Virus record (IMG/VR): IMGVR_UViG_3300045988_143931
Location: 96,001-160,000 of that record
Length of the DNA: 64,000 nt
Source of the DNA: a virus
Reading direction: 5' to 3' (one strand)
Below are positions 36,501 through 43,677 of the stretch, piece after piece. Position 1 is the stretch's first letter. Every line of letters begins with the position of its first letter. A program made the position numbers and the translations under genes. The notes below the pieces were generated by a model. It was not told where the DNA came from. It was given only the letters and a program-made list of their open reading frames with translations, and did not search any database.

Positions 36501-38196
36501 TACTGAAAGTGTTTCAAAGTATAATCAATCTCTTAAAGATAATGCAACTCAAAAATTATCTAATTATAATAACACTTCTAAATATACTCCTGAATTTATT
36601 GAACGAGTTAATTCAAAAATCTCTGAAATTGGACAACTTGATATTACGAAACCAGAAGATGTTGCTAGATTAAAAACAATTGACAGTGAAGTTCAGAAAA
36701 TTGTCGATGATTCAAAGTTATTAGAGAATAAACTTGTTAAACAAGATTCTAAGATTGCTGACATTATATCACAGATGAAGATTTTTAGGTCACAAAATAC
36801 TAATATGTCTTCATCACAAAAACAAGCATTAGATGATGTAATTAATTATGCCGAAAAACTTGCAAATACTGGTAAGGTAACTGCCCAACAAATAGAAAAG
36901 ATAAAAATATCATTTTCTGGATTAAAAGCTGTAGTTGCATCAAGTGGTAATATGGGTAAAAACTTCTTTAGTCAAATCGGTAATCGTCTTACTGATATGA
37001 ACAGCAAATTTGTTGCTCAGTTTTTGAGTTGGCAAGATTGGATAAGATATATTCAGCAAGGCGTAAATACTATTCGTGAACTTGATACAGCGATGACTGA
37101 AGTTAAAAAAGTATCGGATGCAACAGAAACACAATATTCATCATTTAGAGACACTATTTCTTCTACTGCAAAAGAGATTGCAACAACAAATAAAGAATTG
37201 CTTAATTCTAGTGCAGATTTCTTAAGATTAGGATATAGTCTTGATCAAGCAAGCGATCTTGCTAAAAACGCCACATTATTTGTTAATGTCGGTGATGGTG
37301 TTGATATTACAGAAGCTACCGAAGACATGATTACAGCTATGAAAGCTTTTGATATCCAAGCTGAAGATAGCATTAAAATTGTTGATGATTATAACCAGAT
37401 TGGCAACCAGTTTGCGCTCTCTGCTTCTGATATTGGTGAAGCAATGAAACGTTCTGCATCTGCTCTTGAAACAGGTAATAATAGTTTTGAACAAAGTATC
37501 GGTCTTATTACTGCTATGAATGAAATTGTTCAAAATAGTGAAAACACAGGTAACTCTCTTAAGGTTTTAAGCCTGCGTTTAAGAGGTGCAAAGGCAGAAT
37601 TAGAGGATATGCAGGAAGACACAGATGGTCTTTGTGATTCAACCTCTAAGCTTCGTGAACAAATTAAATCTTTGACTGGTGTTGATATTATGTTAGATGA
37701 CAATACATTTAAATCAACAACAGACATTATTAAAGAATTAGGTGCTGTTTGGGATAAATTATCCGATTCTTCACAAGCTGCAACTCTTGAACTTATAGCT
37801 GGAAAATCAAGGGCGAATAATGTAGCGGCGTTACTTAAAAACTATCAAAGAATTGATGAAGTTATGGAAAGCCTTGGTGATGCCGAGGGTTCAGCAATGC
37901 GTGAAAATGAAGCTATAGTTGATTCAATCGATGGACGAATTAAGAAACTATCTGCTTCTATGGAAGATTTTTGGCAAAAAGCAATAAATACAGATTTTGT
38001 AAAAAATATTGTATCATCACTTGATACCATATTAAATCTATTAACAAAAATCATTGATCAGTTCGGTTTACTTCCAACTATTATTGGTGTTGGTGGTGCT
38101 GGTACAGGTATCTTTAAGTTTATTAAGAATTTTGATTGGGTTTTAAAACCTTACACAAAAAACTCTCTCCAACAGTTTTTAGTTGGTCAATCATAG
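33586..38196 (+). CDS. tail tape-measure protein, N-terminal half (1,536 aa) including TP901-type core region
   Basis: ATG 33586 after AAGGAGG. ~1,150 aa of coiled-coil-type sequence, then TEATEDMITAMKAFDIQAEDSIKIVDDYNQIGNQFALSASDIGEAMKRSASALE...LKVLSLRLRG (TMP core). A Gly/Ala hydrophobic segment follows (IIGVGGAGTGIF). TAG at 38194-38196. Confidence 0.8.
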   Translation: MAKDGIVSIAIDYKNELNQMIRDYESALTKMASNDKLSKGMKAQFDNTIAELKRFKADMEKSFSDLSIGKVDKNSFKAFKQTVNKNFESVRAEIDRLDLAVSTINSQIKILGNGVDISKISSQFKDFQDYVQNTNNAIDTMIKKLDGQGISLISFDDSAINQAKSQIKEINKLLKSTDEFSDAKGSKYELFDTEQAQAELDVLAKDLKNTLELIEKSESELSNFDKNSIGFEKTINQINILKLKAADLHDSIQQLIDIPDKTGEYTFGDSILISDDNVDKKVSEYEKIVKGTLDEIRESAIKTREELDKIVTPTSSKTASAKISDKLNPNSAELVTGVTIETTSSELWKKLSPIIEDLQNILNKNPVVAPVKLVVAPNAVSSEKNGEVGTISKSYSKKYQRELAKTGEDAVIDLEGVYKKTFTSIMDEAVSYSKETISKIQNIFESSPIKLHFDFNEEEFKKISDALLSSDSDKKIDITDQIAESKKEVNELAEKLAEVNELLNSADSKDFSFKGFDKFAEEISKSLGQLVELQSMLKTLQNIESTLARASGVSSVTDIETQWQNVSKLIENSIKLDGTFRKNANVDKLASEYNKYLNMGGTNELSFIGKVGKLENSKNIMEAIFSKAKELNSQKVDTSSVDKADDELKSVSSTLDDVISRLDHMINLTRDIGNTFYKMFKDTSVSDIDKQWSSIESKFKSIADESGKINLSKQKKDIQELVEMYQKYANTGGMKTPFDLTDNAETIKKINKVYEQMNSKKNRTSVTNESKNFIKVEDSVNSLTSAINTKTEAIKTEANTMELAARAEVKSIQKIIDALNPLIERIESIPELKIPKEDTILPHKESNISSGKKDAFPSNEEVKQKEKLAEATRKLRQEEKQSSQDSVNSALKDQVSAWKQIQSIREKIAKVDNPDVINQLQETKRYYQQQYLDATKILKSNQDLYDAQGQLNRLKQIELETTAKISQYQSKNTESVSKYNQSLKDNATQKLSNYNNTSKYTPEFIERVNSKISEIGQLDITKPEDVARLKTIDSEVQKIVDDSKLLENKLVKQDSKIADIISQMKIFRSQNTNMSSSQKQALDDVINYAEKLANTGKVTAQQIEKIKISFSGLKAVVASSGNMGKNFFSQIGNRLTDMNSKFVAQFLSWQDWIRYIQQGVNTIRELDTAMTEVKKVSDATETQYSSFRDTISSTAKEIATTNKELLNSSADFLRLGYSLDQASDLAKNATLFVNVGDGVDITEATEDMITAMKAFDIQAEDSIKIVDDYNQIGNQFALSASDIGEAMKRSASALETGNNSFEQSIGLITAMNEIVQNSENTGNSLKVLSLRLRGAKAELEDMQEDTDGLCDSTSKLREQIKSLTGVDIMLDDNTFKSTTDIIKELGAVWDKLSDSSQAATLELIAGKSRANNVAALLKNYQRIDEVMESLGDAEGSAMRENEAIVDSIDGRIKKLSASMEDFWQKAINTDFVKNIVSSLDTILNLLTKIIDQFGLLPTIIGVGGAGTGIFKFIKNFDWVLKPYTKNSLQQFLVGQS
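38165..38185. repeat. left arm of 21-bp inverted repeat bracketing the insert
   Basis: CTCTCCAACAGTTTTTAGTTG is the reverse complement of 43657-43677 (19 Watson-Crick + 2 G:T; the outer 12 nt are perfect). Confidence 0.9.
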
Positions 38197-38859
38197 ATAA
38201 GAGAATAACATAATGGCGTTGTAATCAAGTCTATGGATACATGGGATTCTTAATAAAAAACTCTGCAAACACTTTAGCGGAGTATAAACTTTACATGGAG
38301 GAATAAATGCTTGAATGCTTGGTAGCTTAACAAACTACCCACGGATCACATAACAAACCATAATCCATATAGTTATATTGGATGAGGTTGCGAAAGTAGA
38401 AAAAATTGTATATGTGGATATATGAGAATATCAAGGAGACTTGATAGGTGTCTAAGTATCATTAACAACGGGCAACGAGCAGGACGGTACTCTACATTTT
38501 ATAATGTTGACCATATATAGAAATGAAAGGTCATATATAGAGAATAACTATATAAGAGAGCAATCCCCAACGACATACCCATCCTCTAAGTGAGTCATCG
38601 CCTTAAGTATGACATTCGCTTATAATGCATAGTGTACATTGCGATTTCGGAATTCAGTAATGTACTTGAGTGTGTGTTTCACTCAACTAGGAAATTCCAA
38701 AAATAACTTATAAATAAAATAAATTTTACGGAGGTTTTATTATAGTAAAATATGAAGAAAGAAATTGGTAATTTAATATAAAAAAATAATAAAATAGAGA
38801 GTAGGAAAATCTACTCTCTTATGTAAAAATGATAATAATATTCCCACCAGATTCAATAA

Positions 38860-38940
38860 TTAAAAACATAATTTAATGACAATAAACAACGCTATAAGCG
38901 CAATAACAAAAGACGTGCTCATTCTAATATGGCAATTCAT
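38860..38940 (-). CDS. 26-aa hydrophobic peptide with strong SD, long leader and own terminator
   Basis: ATG at 38940, 8 nt after GGAGGA (complement of 38949-38954). Translation is MNCHIRMSTSFVIALIALFIVIKLCF. Minus-strand terminator AGAGAGTAG/CTACTCTCT at 38796-38819 followed by a T-run. Confidence 0.45.
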   Translation of the reverse strand: MNCHIRMSTSFVIALIALFIVIKLCF

Positions 38941-39109
38941 AATGTCGTTCCTCCTTTTATTAGTTTCTTCTGCTTTGTATACAACAGAAACACTGAAGGG
39001 GTTTATTGCCCAAGCAATACCTGCTCGGCGACCGACTATATTTTTAATTATATATTATCTGGCTCCCTTACGCTTACCTTTTGGATAAGTATGCCTCCCA
39101 GATATTTTT

Positions 39110-39137
39110 ATTATATCATTATATCATATTTTTACAA
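39110..39137 (-). promoter_or_regulatory. sigma-A type promoter driving the 26-aa peptide transcript
   Basis: On the minus strand: TTGTAA (39137-39132), 16-nt spacer, TATAAT (39115-39110). A second overlapping TATAAT lies 8 nt upstream. Confidence 0.5.
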
Positions 39138-39294
39138 TTCAGAACATAGGTTTTGAGGAAAATGTATAGTATTAAAGAGTCTTTTTATGCATATTGACAT
39201 GATCATAAGATTAGTGATTAATAATAAAATAGGACTGTCGTGAAACAGCCCCTACTATTGAAGTAAAGGAGAATAAATATATAAATGAAGAACA

Positions 39295-42888: not shown

Positions 42889-43116
42889 TTAGTTTTCTTT
42901 TATAACTTCAATAATTGAAATTTCTGACTTAGAGATGGTAAATGCATTAGTGTCAGAATATAAATGTAAATCATATCCAACTGAATAATGATGATTAAAT
43001 ATTTCTTCATTTTCAAGATTGTATTCTAATACGCCTTTATGACCATAATAGACCTTATTGATATGGTTGTATTCTTGCACTTTACCATCTTTGTTTTTAA
43101 TTTTAAATGTATACAT
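42889..43116 (-). CDS. hypothetical protein (75 aa)
   Basis: ORF track. GAGGAGGA upstream on the minus strand (complement of 43124-43131). Confidence 0.45.
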   Translation of the reverse strand: MYTFKIKNKDGKVQEYNHINKVYYGHKGVLEYNLENEEIFNHHYSVGYDLHLYSDTNAFTISKSEISIIEVIKEN

Positions 43117-43194
43117 AGTATCCTCCTCTGTAATTTGATATTACTATCATACTACATTAAGGAATATTTTACCATTCGGAACATTAGTTCTTAC

Positions 43195-43605
43195 TTAAAA
43201 ATCACTCTTACAATTATTACAGTGCCATTGTTTTTTTACCTTTTGTGAGAATATACCGAACATCGCTACTGATGTTGCTTTTGATACTCCTGATATTTTC
43301 TTACAATTTGTTGAATTACAATATGGACAATGAACTTTATTTAACCAATCTTGTGCTTGGGCGTTAGCTTGGGCGATTTGCTGTGGGGTAAGGTCGGGAA
43401 TCGCAGGATTGTTTTCTTTAGTTCCATATTGTTTACTTAATTCACACCATAGTTGTTGAGCATCGTCATCTGAACAATTTGTTAATTCTTGAATAAACTT
43501 TATTCCTTTTAATGTTTGATTTTGAGCAATTATCACCAACATTTTTGTTGCTTCCGTGCTTTCAATTTGATTATCAAAATAATATTTTGCTTCTTCGTAA
43601 TTCAT
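43195..43605 (-). CDS. hypothetical protein with C-terminal zinc ribbon (136 aa)
   Basis: ATG 43605 is 5 nt after AAAGGGGGG. CPYCNSTNC...CNNCKSDF. ORF-track start 43659 would lie in its own promoter. Confidence 0.5.
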   Translation of the reverse strand: MNYEEAKYYFDNQIESTEATKMLVIIAQNQTLKGIKFIQELTNCSDDDAQQLWCELSKQYGTKENNPAIPDLTPQQIAQANAQAQDWLNKVHCPYCNSTNCKKISGVSKATSVAMFGIFSQKVKKQWHCNNCKSDF

Positions 43606-43630
43606 AATAACCCCCCTTTTTTTTGTTTTT

Positions 43631-43659
43631 ATTATATCAGACAACTCATAAATACGCAA
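43631..43659 (-). promoter_or_regulatory. near-consensus promoter reading into the island from its right end
   Basis: On the minus strand: TTGCGT (43659-43654), 17-nt spacer, TGaTATAAT (TATAAT at 43636-43631). The -35 overlaps the inner end of the right repeat arm. Confidence 0.6.
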
Positions 43660-43677
43660 TTAAAGACTGTTGGAGAG
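43657..43677. repeat. right arm of 21-bp inverted repeat bracketing the insert
   Basis: CAATTAAAGACTGTTGGAGAG pairs with 38165-38185. Confidence 0.9.

Follow-up and report, generated by a model that had tools for sequence, protein, structure and literature searches.

A probable group-I-type intron with an unusually long P10 pairing in the tape-measure gene of a phage

The interrupted tape-measure gene

The window analyzed here is a 64,000-nt stretch of viral DNA (positions 96,001 to 160,000 of IMG/VR record IMGVR_UViG_3300045988_143931) in which the tape-measure gene is split by an insert. The parts of the gene are listed below with the basis of each assignment in brackets.

33559..38136, + strand, exon 1 of the tape-measure gene, 1526 codons, ending ...AAT TTT GAT (ORF)
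38137..43656, + strand, putative intron, 5520 nt, last base G43656 (inserts at the same point in relatives; terminal G)
43657..43677, + strand, right arm of an inverted repeat, the first 21 nt of exon 2, seven codons QLKTVGE (synonymous variation among relatives)
43657..48210, + strand, exon 2 of the tape-measure gene, 1517 codons plus stop (ORF; spliced frame)

Inserts of 1.8-5.8 kb interrupt the tape-measure gene of more than 60 related gut-phage contigs at one and the same codon, and all close and intermediate relatives carry variable DNA at this point. In a distant clade the gene is uninterrupted and colinear with half 1 plus half 2. Joining 38136 to 43657 keeps the frame and yields a single 3043-aa ORF with one terminal stop. 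Judged from the sequence, the two halves are one gene. Counting against splicing, no spliced or intron-less junction was found in IMG/VR or the JGI metagenomes.

The first half-ORF runs on to a stop at 38196. The end of exon 1 is nevertheless placed at 38136 because of the covariation of P1 (see below), alleles reading GAT TAG, the exon-1 ends of five allele types, whose mutual resemblance stops two residues past K(N/G/K), and the in-frame join. The ORF tail past 38136 is noncoding, as its frame is shifted by the length of an A-run and TGG is replaced by TAG in several contigs. An earlier, sequence-only reading of this DNA had put the left arm of the repeat in the last 11 codons of half 1, which holds nominally but not as a statement about coding, since in relatives the A-run length shifts the frame and some have GAT TAG before the arm. 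The same reading took the right arm for the first meaningful codons of half 2, and the conserved half-2 protein indeed begins exactly at 43657. These residues are conserved (QLKTVGES / QLKTISES) and have no start codon of their own; in most alleles exon 2 lacks a start codon or ribosome-binding site. Three contigs (L015, L028 and L030) carry a stop codon immediately before the right arm, which thus could not be translated on its own.

When the inner right ends of the inserts were sorted by eye, 11 unrelated sequence classes were obtained, all of which end in G (11/11; about 1e-9 by chance, G making up 15% of the intron), and the diverged lineage L404 also ends in G. Apart from this terminal G, the inner right end has no conserved sequence.

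A structured RNA at the 5' end of the insert

Inserts of the type found here (W-type) each open with the same noncoding plus-sense structured RNA of about 580 nt, followed by variable cargo and the final G. The elements of this module and of the adjoining exon end are given below; the P-numbers of the module helices, from P2 onwards, were assigned by topology.

38137..38714, + strand, conserved noncoding structured RNA, putative ribozyme (conservation, covariation, no ORF of 40 aa or more)
38132..38136, + strand, proposed P1 5' strand, the last five exon bases TTGAT, with U38136 in a U.G wobble with G38186 (pairs kept in all five compared sequences)
38138..38151, + strand, small hairpin in loop L1, GGGUUUUAAAACCU (compensatory changes in 4/5 pairs: GGGTTTTAAAACC / GGCTCTTAAGAGCT / AATCTTTAAAGATT)
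38165..38185, + strand, left arm, putative 3'-exon guide, i.e., the P10 strand of the internal guide sequence (pairs with 43657-43677)
38186..38190, + strand, proposed P1 3' strand of the internal guide sequence, GUCAA (changes in concert with the exon end: GTCAA, GCTAA, GGCAA)
38192-38235, + strand, proposed P2
38260-38283, + strand, proposed P2.1
38291-38302/38582-38593, + strand, proposed P3
38308-38320/38470-38481, + strand, proposed P4-P5, enclosing a branched domain
38389-38398, + strand, GAAA tetraloop hairpin in the branched P4-P5 domain
38482-38566, + strand, proposed P6 domain
38567-38581, + strand, proposed J6/7 and P7 5' strand
38594-38613, + strand, proposed P8
38634-38665, + strand, proposed P9
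38666-38686, + strand, proposed last hairpin of the module
38635..38714, + strand, two-hairpin element of 80 nt at the module 3' end (common to an otherwise unrelated intron type)

The module is 85-100% identical across phages whose exon-1 proteins are only 33-40% identical, and none of its 74 copies lies outside the tape-measure gene. Of the 160 pairs predicted by RNAalifold, 19 show compensatory changes; shuffling yielded 3.4 +/- 1.5 (0 of 500) and slid controls 0-2. G.U cells outnumber A.C cells by 209 to 6 in the plus-strand structure, which argues that the plus strand is the functional one. The 80-nt two-hairpin element is 95% identical in L040-L042, L053 and L054, the cores of which have no other similarity, and both of its stems covary in L029 and L191.

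P1 covaries across three lineages (TTGAT/GTCAA, TTAGT/GCTAA and TTGCT/GGCAA, every cell paired), with compensatory double changes at two positions (AU/GC/CG and GC/AU) and an invariant U.G in the five sequences compared. The left arm lies inside the noncoding RNA, directly 5' of GUCAA and hence of the wobble G. The last three bases of the guide, UUG, have alternative partners in the first intron bases UGG or in exon-2 CAA, and this predicted alternation is the canonical guide-sequence switch. As drawn from these pairings, the geometry corresponds to a group I internal guide sequence with P1 and P10, except that P10 exceeds its usual length several-fold.

The order of the helices likewise matches group I, namely P3[P4-P5 with GNRA loop, P6] J6/7 P3' P8 P9, and the invariant CAACGACAUACCC of the module resembles UAACGACUAUCCC at J6/7-P7 of T4 td. 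In relatives, introns of other types with classical group I sequence elements occupy this site: the L054 intron carries GUUCAACGACUGG...ACAGUCUGG, and the L402 intron, of about 660 nt and without cargo, carries AAUCCGCAGC, a match to the group I Q element. Two results count against an intron. No convincing P7, the guanosine-binding helix, was found in the module, the best candidate having 4 bp and a bulged A (G38572-C38628, C38574-G38627, A38575-U38626 and U38576-A38625, all bases invariant). The other result counts weakly against group I: Rfam 15 gave no Intron_gpI match, even at E <= 10, on a 681-nt stretch. It is weak because in the same search the T4 td intron scored only 40 bits (below the family threshold) and the T4 nrdB intron was missed. 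The Rfam group I model is incomplete for phage introns (PMC11878797).

Cargo genes

The remainder of the insert is occupied by the following features.

38796..38819, - strand, terminator-like hairpin for leftward cargo transcription (terminator scan)
39231..39252, - strand, terminator-like hairpin of the leftward cargo genes, kept in most relatives (terminator scan, comparison)
39295..39480, - strand, 61-aa hydrophobic protein (ribosome-binding site GGAGGTG read from sequence)
39692..39943, - strand, 83-aa zinc-ribbon-like protein, in most relatives (family search, comparison)
39965..40939, + strand, NsnA-like / GmrSD_N (DUF262) protein (Pfam 1.8e-15; PHROG 2.9e-42; PADLOC NsnA 2.2e-37, full length)
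40998..42495, + strand, four small ORFs, 40998-41390, 41396-41611, 41568-42092 and 42073-42495, no family match (ORFs, family searches)
42498..42527, unstranded, 12-bp GC-rich hairpin between convergent cargo units (in most relatives)
42889..43116, - strand, 75-aa ORF (ORF)
43195..43605, - strand, 136-aa zinc-ribbon protein, leftward from the right edge of the intron (ORF, family search)

A -10 box, TGATATAAT, read from the sequence on the minus strand at about 43628-43636, precedes the 136-aa zinc-ribbon gene, and the same leftward-gene layout is found at the right edge in every right-end class. Among the exchangeable cargo are defence-like NsnA/GmrSD genes, MazF-like toxins and antirepressor-like genes. 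The earlier reading saw no transposase, invertase, reverse transcriptase or homing endonuclease inside the insert, and family searches likewise found no transposase, reverse transcriptase, homing endonuclease or recombinase there. That no homing endonuclease was found in the cargo to account for intron spread counts against an intron, as does the hairpin at 42498-42527. The scan calls it a terminator on the minus strand; a plus-strand U-run was also seen by eye, and such a strong hairpin, placed between the putative ribozyme and exon 2, might end transcription of the precursor prematurely.

The inverted repeat and its covariation

The arms at 38165-38185 (CTCTCCAACAGTTTTTAGTTG) and 43657-43677 (CAATTAAAGACTGTTGGAGAG) form an inverted repeat in which 19 of the 21 positions make Watson-Crick pairs and 2 make G:T pairs, the outer 12 being perfect; coordinates and pair counts were re-found exactly as first described. 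Pairing of the 5' module with the opening 25 nt of half 2 is computed at -31.8 kcal/mol, against -13.0 +/- 2.9 kcal/mol for 218 control 25-mers from the same gene (best -22.3), and a two-arm hairpin construct has z = -8.0, so the view that the repeat exceeds chance, and by a wide margin, is borne out. The 10-nt partial copy at 42650 (CTGTTGGAGAC) exists but carries no significance, about 0.5 such matches being expected in the window. It falls within the opening codons of a Cys-rich ORF (39 aa, minus strand) read by eye.

In L404 the guide reads ...ATTCGCTTAT(A)TGTTTTTAGTTG and exon 2 CAATTAAAGACAATAAGCGAAT, forming a 22-bp helix that contains 2 G.U pairs and one bulge. Both arms have exchanged their distal half there (10 distal positions on each side) and remain perfectly complementary over these positions. 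Folding energies are -31.5 and -24.1 kcal/mol for cognate guide/exon constructs (z about -8) but no better than -10.6 and -14.7 kcal/mol for swapped ones. The covariation of the arm pair between lineages, together with the tolerated G.U pairs and bulge, supports pairing at the RNA level. An altered guide is also seen in an L138-type phage (OJME01000007.1).

Proposed splicing and the competing explanations

Taken together, these data suggest that the insert at 38137-43656 is probably a tape-measure intron removed at the RNA level by group-I-type splicing, with the arm pair as a long P10 guide. The computed support consists of the pairings, their covariation, the plus-sense structured RNA, the terminal G, the in-frame join and the conservation of the arrangement throughout. 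We infer that splicing takes place autocatalytically on a true group I core. Two features of the helix count against an intron: among W-type inserts the splice-site-proximal half is the more variable one, the distal part being the best conserved, and the +1 base is G instead of C in some alleles (L013, L029).

The arm complementarity might instead be a relic of the origin or movement of the element, e.g., an inverted target copy made on insertion, with little present function and with splicing needing no more than the short P1, the terminal G and a few initial pairs of P10. Consistent with this, the W-type left arm never compensates exon changes, alleles with just 17/21 pairs exist, and T-run expansions put bulges into the helix. 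Apart from such T-run changes, however, the left arm is invariant among W-type relatives except for two C-to-T changes, both C-to-U opposite G and keeping U.G pairs. In addition, the diverged lineage kept perfect complementarity over its replaced distal positions, and GGAGAG in the right arm never varies even though the exon-2 proteins share only about 30-36% identity. We therefore regard a relic as unlikely.

The sequence-only reading had also considered an RNA helix closing the 5.5-kb insert as an RNase III processing stem. The pairing itself is upheld by the arm covariation and the tolerated G.U and bulge; the proposed purpose fits less well than a splicing guide. Duplexes of 21 bp or more are RNase III substrates. 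Co-folding gives a helix of at least 21 bp with a 3-bp extension, and the cargo has its own promoters and terminators, so that RNase III might cut the 21-24-bp helix and free the cargo RNA from the late message, leaving the tape-measure halves as separate proteins. Such a cut would, however, fall inside the conserved codons QLKTVGE and destroy the message, because the right arm encodes conserved residues without a start codon of its own. The lack of a start codon or ribosome-binding site in most exon-2 alleles and the upstream stop in three of them also speak against it, and it leaves unexplained the P1 covariation, the U.G wobble, the invariant terminal G and the 580-nt structured RNA. Processing by RNase III is thus quite improbable.

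The 21-bp repeat does not delimit a DNA element, and both DNA-level proposals of the sequence-only reading are very hard to sustain. Terminal inverted repeats of a non-autonomous cassette mobilised in trans would fit the variable cargo flanked by a 21-bp inverted repeat and the exon end TTGAT, which some IS200/IS605 elements and group A IStrons use as their target, but conserved DNA begins at 38053, about 110 nt left of the left arm, and the right arm is exon with synonymous variation. Furthermore, inspection of the insert ends showed no target duplication, as had been claimed, there is no transposase in 15/15 cargo sets examined, removal of 38165-43677 (5513 nt) breaks the frame, as also claimed, and tolerated G:T positions and a bulge suit RNA pairing, unlike protein-bound DNA ends. 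Sites for one of the two tyrosine recombinases of the window (Phage_integrase genes at 8901-9947 and 58518-59714), inverting or excising the segment, could be seen in the small palindrome CCAAC-N8-GTTGG of each arm, but inverted sites would flip the segment without restoring the gene, the two arms disagree in their 8-bp central region in all allele classes but one (tyrosine recombinases require identical overlap regions), the L404 arms contain a bulge, and the inner right end is unconserved.

Comparison with known systems

In T4 td, as in the group I guide generally (P1 and P10), the exon end pairs with the guide, a U.G marks the 5' splice site, the bases immediately preceding the wobble G pair with the beginning of the 3' exon, and the intron ends in G, all of which is seen here. 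As we read the td sequence, guide GCCUGAG pairs with CUUGGGU, and the two bases 5' of the guide pair with the 3' exon. P10 of a typical group I intron is about 2-7 bp, whereas here it would be 21-22 bp, with its distal part best conserved and with a core missed by Rfam. The T4 nrdD (sunY) intron, studied by Michel and colleagues, reportedly has its catalytic core upstream of the ORF and a remote 3' splice site returned by base pairing; core and 3' splice site are said to be less than 1 kb apart, with one homing-endonuclease ORF. The present arrangement would share the 5' ribozyme, the downstream coding insert and the 3' splice site returned by pairing, but differs in the distance (1.8-5.8 kb), in several genes on both strands and in a much longer tether.

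Group A IStrons (CdISt1 family) insert directly 3' of TTGAT and combine a 5' group I ribozyme with 3' cargo (PMC4227781). The target, this layout, an RNA stem around the cargo and the absence of target duplication and DNA-level terminal inverted repeats are common to both. In contrast, no copy here has IS200/IS605 tnpA/tnpB, the 3' end is not TCAG, copies are confined to a single genomic site, and the stem involves the 3' exon, while that of IStrons is intron-internal (6-34 bp) and excludes it. In engineered trans-splicing group I ribozymes a long antisense extension beside the guide holds the exon-bearing RNA (PMC6155759, PMC3895272). The extension adjoins the guide in both cases, but the artificial one binds a 5'-exon substrate and the natural one here would bind the 3' exon. 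RNase III stems flanking rRNAs likewise pair over several kb within one transcript; here, however, one strand is translated, the helix adjoins both splice sites and there is no sign of cleavage.

Proposed mechanism and significance

In the splicing model the internal guide sequence near the 5' end of the module would be 5'-CUCUCCAACAGUUUUUAGUUG-GUCAA-3'. GUCAA would form P1 with the last five bases of exon 1, UUGAU, the U.G wobble setting the 5' splice site after 38136, and the 21 nt upstream of GUCAA (the left arm) would pair with the equally long right arm at the start of exon 2 to form the unusually long P10. P10 would thereby place the 3' splice site, 5.5 kb off and otherwise marked only by the terminal G43656, beside the cut 5' exon. 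Ligation would join ...FIKNFD to QLKTVGES... in a single 3043-aa tape-measure protein, and the expected RNA junction is ...AATTTTGAT followed directly by CAATTAAAG. The long guide probably allows the intron to tolerate a large cargo that is freely exchangeable and brings promoters and terminators of its own.

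The Tape-Measure Gene and Its Insert

The window belongs to a large AT-rich phage genome without close cultured relatives, and BLAST of the region and of the structured 5′ module of the insert against cultured phages gave no match. For the tape-measure core there are distant relatives in SPbeta-like Bacillus phages, Enterocloster phage PMBT24 and large Clostridioides phages. Relatives are numerous in IMG/VR and in metagenomes, and in every one with recognisable halves of the gene an insert of 1.8–5.8 kb lies at one and the same point, while in a more distant clade a single continuous ORF is colinear with half 1 plus half 2. 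The halves are therefore one gene with an insert, the site being conserved and the insert length not. Neither an intron-less allele nor a spliced junction was found in IMG/VR and the JGI metagenomes. The parts referred to below are the following (window coordinates).

33559–38196, plus strand, ORF of half 1, of which exon 1 would end at 38136
38137–43656, plus strand, proposed intron (5520 nt)
38137–38714, plus strand, conserved 5′ module of the intron (~580 nt)
38165–38185, plus strand, left arm of the repeat (CTCTCCAACAGTTTTTAGTTG)
38186–38190, plus strand, GUCAA, directly 3′ of the left arm
42498–42527, hairpin between the 5′ module and exon 2
43516, plus strand, start of the open frame of half 2
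43657, plus strand, exact start of the conserved half-2 protein and of exon 2
43657–43677, plus strand, right arm of the repeat (CAATTAAAGACTGTTGGAGAG)

The frame is kept when 38136 is joined to 43657, and the joined ORF encodes 3043 aa (...GIFKFIKNFD-QLKTVGES...); splicing at these positions would produce an RNA junction of ...AAGAATTTTGAT followed by CAATTAAAGACTG. The last ~80 nt of exon 1 (38053–38136) are ~95% identical in DNA even where the upstream protein is only 33–40% identical, and three different upstream sequence classes converge at TTTATTAAGAATTTTGAT. The stretch resembles a tract of co-conversion or recombination that moves with the intron.

In several relatives half 1 is broken again, 116–250 codons upstream of the splice site, with gene calls of 1103 + 208 aa and 2021 + 353 + 252 aa, which suggests more interruptions, or recoding, in the tape-measure gene.

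Additional breaks in half 1 of related gut-phage contigs (contig coordinates)
L138, about 5760
L191
L399, 9971–10001
L402, 8562–10001

Complementarity and Coding Status of the Arms

The two arms are reverse complements, as the sequence-only reading had stated, with 19 Watson-Crick and two G:T pairs and a perfect outer 12. When the first 25 nt of half 2 were paired with the 580 nt that follow half 1, the energy was −31.8 kcal/mol, compared with −13.0 ± 2.9 kcal/mol for 218 control 25-mers of the same gene (best control −22.3), and a hairpin construct of both arms gave z = −8.0. The complementarity is thus far beyond chance. A third, partial copy (10–11 nt) reported at 42650 is attributable to chance; it falls on the first codons of a small ORF on the minus strand.

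The left arm had been placed in the last codons of half 1, and nominally it does lie in the tail of that ORF; the tail itself carries no coding constraint. An A-run in front of the guide, in the first intron loop (38156–38161), varies from four to six A among relatives, and its length variation puts the left arm into three different reading frames. A T-run inside the guide (38176–38180) has five to seven T, the extra ones forming bulges in the guide-exon helix of some phages. Before the left arm, GAT TGG is replaced by GAT TAG in several contigs, and among the exon-1 ends of five allele or intron types likeness ceases two residues past a shared K(N/G/K), as in KNFD, KNVG, KGKS and KKLG. On these comparisons the left arm is best described as RNA and not as protein-coding sequence. 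The right arm (QLKTVGES) varies mostly at synonymous sites, as expected of translated sequence. Most alleles lack a start codon ahead of it, and three have a stop codon immediately before it, so that these residues can be made only if exon 2 is joined to exon 1. Masking of GGAGAG as a Shine-Dalgarno site by CUCUCC was ruled out, no in-frame start codon being present downstream.

Proposed Guide Pairing and Splice Sites

The repeat is most likely the extended 3′-exon guide of a putative group-I-like intron that carries an island of accessory genes within the tape-measure gene. The guide comprises the left arm and the adjoining GUCAA, which can pair with the last five bases of exon 1 (UUGAU, 38132–38136) in a P1-like helix ending in a U38136·G38186 wobble at the proposed splice site. 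Three metagenome lineages have TTGAT/GTCAA, TTAGT/GCTAA and TTGCT/GGCAA in this helix: two positions covary, the U·G is invariant and every position is paired throughout. A small hairpin in the loop between the P1 strands covaries as well. The last three bases of the left arm (UUG, 38183–38185) can pair either with the first intron bases UGG or with CAA of exon 2; such a switch of partners by guide bases is known for the P1 extension and P10 of group I introns.

The right ends of the inserts (last 40–60 nt) were sorted by us into 11 unrelated sequence classes, each holding the start of a leftward gene. All 11 end in G directly before the exon (~1e-9 by chance, given 15% G in the intron), and so does the intron of contig L404.

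In the intron type of the window the left arm is nearly invariant, its point changes being only C-to-U opposite G, and the right arm drifts at synonymous sites with 17–21 of the 21 pairs kept. This variation alone could not separate function from relic, and it was the diverged L190 type that settled the matter. Contig L404, which has this type with both halves of the gene, was recovered by following a homologous protein to a member of its cluster. The L404 intron has 4042 nt and ends ...AACG, its guide is 5′-GAATTCGCTTATATGTTTTTAGTTG-3′, and exon 2 of L404 begins CAATTAAAGACAATAAGCGAATC, encoding QLKTISES. From +1 to +12 the helix pairs as in the window, with two G·U; after a one-base bulge, +13 to +22 (ATAAGCGAAT) is perfectly paired with ATTCGCTTAT. 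The putative P10 thus has 21 bp in the window and, with different distal sequence on both strands, 22 bp in L404. Since the distal half is wholly different on both sides and still complementary, the arms covary, which contradicts the suggestion that their complementarity is a relic. Cognate guide/exon constructs gave −31.5 and −24.1 kcal/mol (z ~ −8) and swapped ones −10.6 and −14.7 kcal/mol, a gap of 10–20 kcal/mol. For the L138 type the guide is CTCGCCAAAG... (OJME01000007.1), and a 14-mer scan for its exon, with a query that was too short, returned chance matches only.

Structured RNA of the 5′ Module

The 5′ module is present in 74 copies of 85–100% identity, which holds even in phages whose half-1 protein is only 33–40% identical. 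It has no ORF of at least 40 aa, and the ten matches of its core 19-mer in GTDB genomes are all chance matches in coding DNA. An RNAalifold consensus of 12 variants contains 160 pairs, 19 of them with compensatory double changes; column shuffles gave 3.4 ± 1.5 (0 of 500 reach 19) and slid partners 0–2. The more diverged copies in L191, L138 and L190 add further covariation to the helices of the module; for example, 38594–38598/38609–38613 is GUCAU/AUGAC, ACUAC/GUAGU or GUUAC/GUAAC. The plus-strand structure holds 209 G·U cells vs. only six A·C cells, from which it follows that the functional strand is that of the tape-measure mRNA. A minus-strand guide RNA for a TnpB-like nuclease, an idea raised by TTGAT and the 21-nt target, was rejected because of this plus-sense signal and because no such nuclease is present. 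A 14-bp pairing of exon 1 (38120–38133) with 38244–38257, proposed by RNAalifold, was no better than controls.

An 80-nt two-hairpin element at 38635–38714 is 95% identical to L054 4461–4542, the cores of the two intron types being otherwise unrelated. Its loop GGAAUU and a downstream AAUUCC could form a pseudoknot, one position of which covaries in L029.

Probable Affiliation to Group I Introns

The element has several features of group I introns, namely P1 with a U·G wobble, P10 and a terminal intron G. The conserved core of the group combines a P3-P8 pseudoknot topology with a P4-P6 domain. In the modelled structure, a P3 helix closes a P4-P5 domain, which contains a GAAA tetraloop and an A-rich segment, and a P6 domain; the single-stranded invariant CCCCAACGACAUACCC (J6/7), P3′, P8 and P9 come next. 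This order would fit group I, and many of the helices covary; the P-numbers are our reading of the topology. The invariant CCCCAACGACAUACCC resembles UAACGACUAUCCC of T4 td at J6/7-P7, and textbook elements of group I are found in other intron types inserted at this site. P7 is the helix with the guanosine-binding G-C pair in group I introns. Its best candidate here has 4 bp and a bulged A (38572–38576 with 38625–38628), all bases being invariant. Better-looking alternatives clash with covarying helices. Three candidates were rejected: GACAUAC/GUAUGAC because it conflicts with a helix for which three lineages show covariation, GACAUAC paired to the last hairpin's loop because this is not group-I-like, and AACGACAU with 38943–38950 because it lies in cargo that most relatives lack.

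The RF00028 covariance model found no match at E ≤ 10, and nothing relevant came from Rfam scans of the window, of the insert and its 5′ module, or of two other intron types. These negatives count for little, since in calibration T4 td reached 40.3 bits against a family threshold of 50 and T4 nrdB was missed, and a 2025 study of Bacillus phage introns describes the Rfam group I model as incomplete for phage introns (PMC11878797). Overall, the element is classed as acting like a group I intron, with probable membership in the group.

Group A IStrons (PMC4227781) are similar in their TTGAT target and in the layout of a 5′ ribozyme and 3′ cargo. They insert 3′ of TTGAT/ATTAT/TTTAT and end in TCAG; here the TTGAT target is shared (TTAGT and TTGCT in variants), and the 3′ ends are ...ACG, AAG, TAG, ATG and AGG, not TCAG. 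IStrons combine a group I ribozyme with a transposon of the IS200/IS605 or IS607 kind, carrying tnpA and/or tnpB, and no transposase family was found in the cargo of the window or in 38 cargo ORFs of 15 relatives. A group II intron (5′ GUGYG, 3′ AY, domain V, usually a reverse transcriptase ORF) was rejected, as the intron starts with UGGGUU and ends in G; Rfam gave no group II match and the insert cargo encodes no reverse transcriptase.

Alternative Readings of the Repeat

The sequence-only reading had also offered three roles for the arms. In one, they form a helix in the late transcript that serves as an RNase III processing stem. This was right in kind, since the arms pair as RNA and a duplex of about 20 bp or more is present, and wrong in purpose: cutting in the helix would destroy conserved codons, and processing accounts for none of P1, the terminal G and the ribozyme-like RNA. 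Terminal inverted repeats of a DNA transposon did not survive comparison with relatives, in which DNA conservation overshoots the left arm by 110 nt; besides, the right arm is exon and neither a target duplication nor a transposase is present. Recombinase sites of an inversion or excision module, which would need identical overlap regions and a cognate recombinase, do not fit either, the arms being inverted, with central bases that differ between them in all but one allele class, a bulge in L404, an unconserved inner right end of the insert and recombinase genes 29 kb and 15 kb away.

Cargo and Other Intron Types at the Site

The inserts are modular when compared, with a constant 5′ module, variable cargo and a variable right end. 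In the window the cargo includes an NsnA-like/GmrSD_N protein (39965–40939), small plus-strand ORFs without known identity and several small minus-strand genes with their own predicted promoters and terminators. In 15 relatives it adds MazF/PemK-like toxins, HTH proteins, Bro-N/KilAC antirepressor-like proteins and more GmrSD_N. Defence-like and toxin-like genes thus form part of the cargo (examples at window 39965–40939 and L003 13055–13855): NsnA-like/GmrSD_N proteins are encoded by the window and by three relatives, and three relatives have PemK/MazF-like toxins. Consistent with what had been noticed initially, no transposase, homing endonuclease, reverse transcriptase or recombinase was found in the window cargo or among 38 cargo ORFs of the 15 relatives. 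The cargo of the related L054 intron contains two tandem matches to the Rfam '6A' RNA motif (6688–6788; 56 and 51 bits, above the family threshold).

The strong hairpin at 42498–42527, common to most relatives, has a GC-rich stem of 12 bp flanked by an A-run and a U-run. By its predicted structure it looks able to terminate transcription both ways, and hence also that of the precursor mRNA. One possibility is that late transcription runs through the hairpin; the other is that exon 2 comes from a transcript of its own and is joined in trans, for which a 21-bp tether would be exactly what is needed.

At least four different intron RNAs of ~0.5–0.7 kb occupy this tape-measure site in gut phages. 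Besides the type of the window, at least four further noncoding modules or intron types, all unrelated, were located there in related phages. The intron of L402 is only ~660 nt long and has no cargo. Rfam gave no match in the three types scanned (those of the window, L054 and L017), so that phage intron diversity is probably under-counted.

Other modules and intron types at the site (contig coordinates)
L054, 4033–4460
L017, 12955–13400
L402, 10650–11417
L399, 10628–12402

Other Features of the Window

Four tRNA genes (4560, 5459, 11454 and 12513; window 4560–12600) lie upstream of the structural genes. One of two tyrosine recombinase genes (8901–9947 and 58518–59714 (−)) is located among them. 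Near the window end lies an ORF for NrdD, the anaerobic ribonucleotide reductase (62596–63978, minus strand). Its Pfam match begins only at profile position 132 of 562, and there is a stop immediately upstream. By analogy, nrdD may be interrupted here; T4 nrdD is interrupted by an intron.

Implications

What stands out here is the unusual length of P10, the size of the multi-gene cargo and the clustering of unrecognised intron RNAs at a single site. For annotation it matters that gene callers split these tape-measure proteins of ~3000 aa into two or more fragments. If the proposed model is true, this is a natural intron whose guide, several times the usual length, locates a 3′ splice site at a distance of kilobases, and the amount of tethering needed by a remote splice site becomes testable. 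An intron within an essential tail gene seems to serve as a place where defence-like (NsnA/GmrSD), MazF-like toxin and antirepressor-like genes are swapped in, which opens a new place to search for accessory and anti-competitor genes of phages. More speculatively, we entertain as a tentative and rather doubtful proposal that this is a previously undescribed group-I-like lineage, unseen by current models, in which the 21–22-nt 3′-exon tether evolved for splicing across a multi-kb island that is independently transcribed and exchangeable, and has antisense promoters and an internal terminator; the intron would spread without a homing endonuclease, and its splicing might even unite 5′ and 3′ transcripts made separately. 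If that reading is true, the intron would give defence and toxin genes a safe harbour within a structural gene that is essential.
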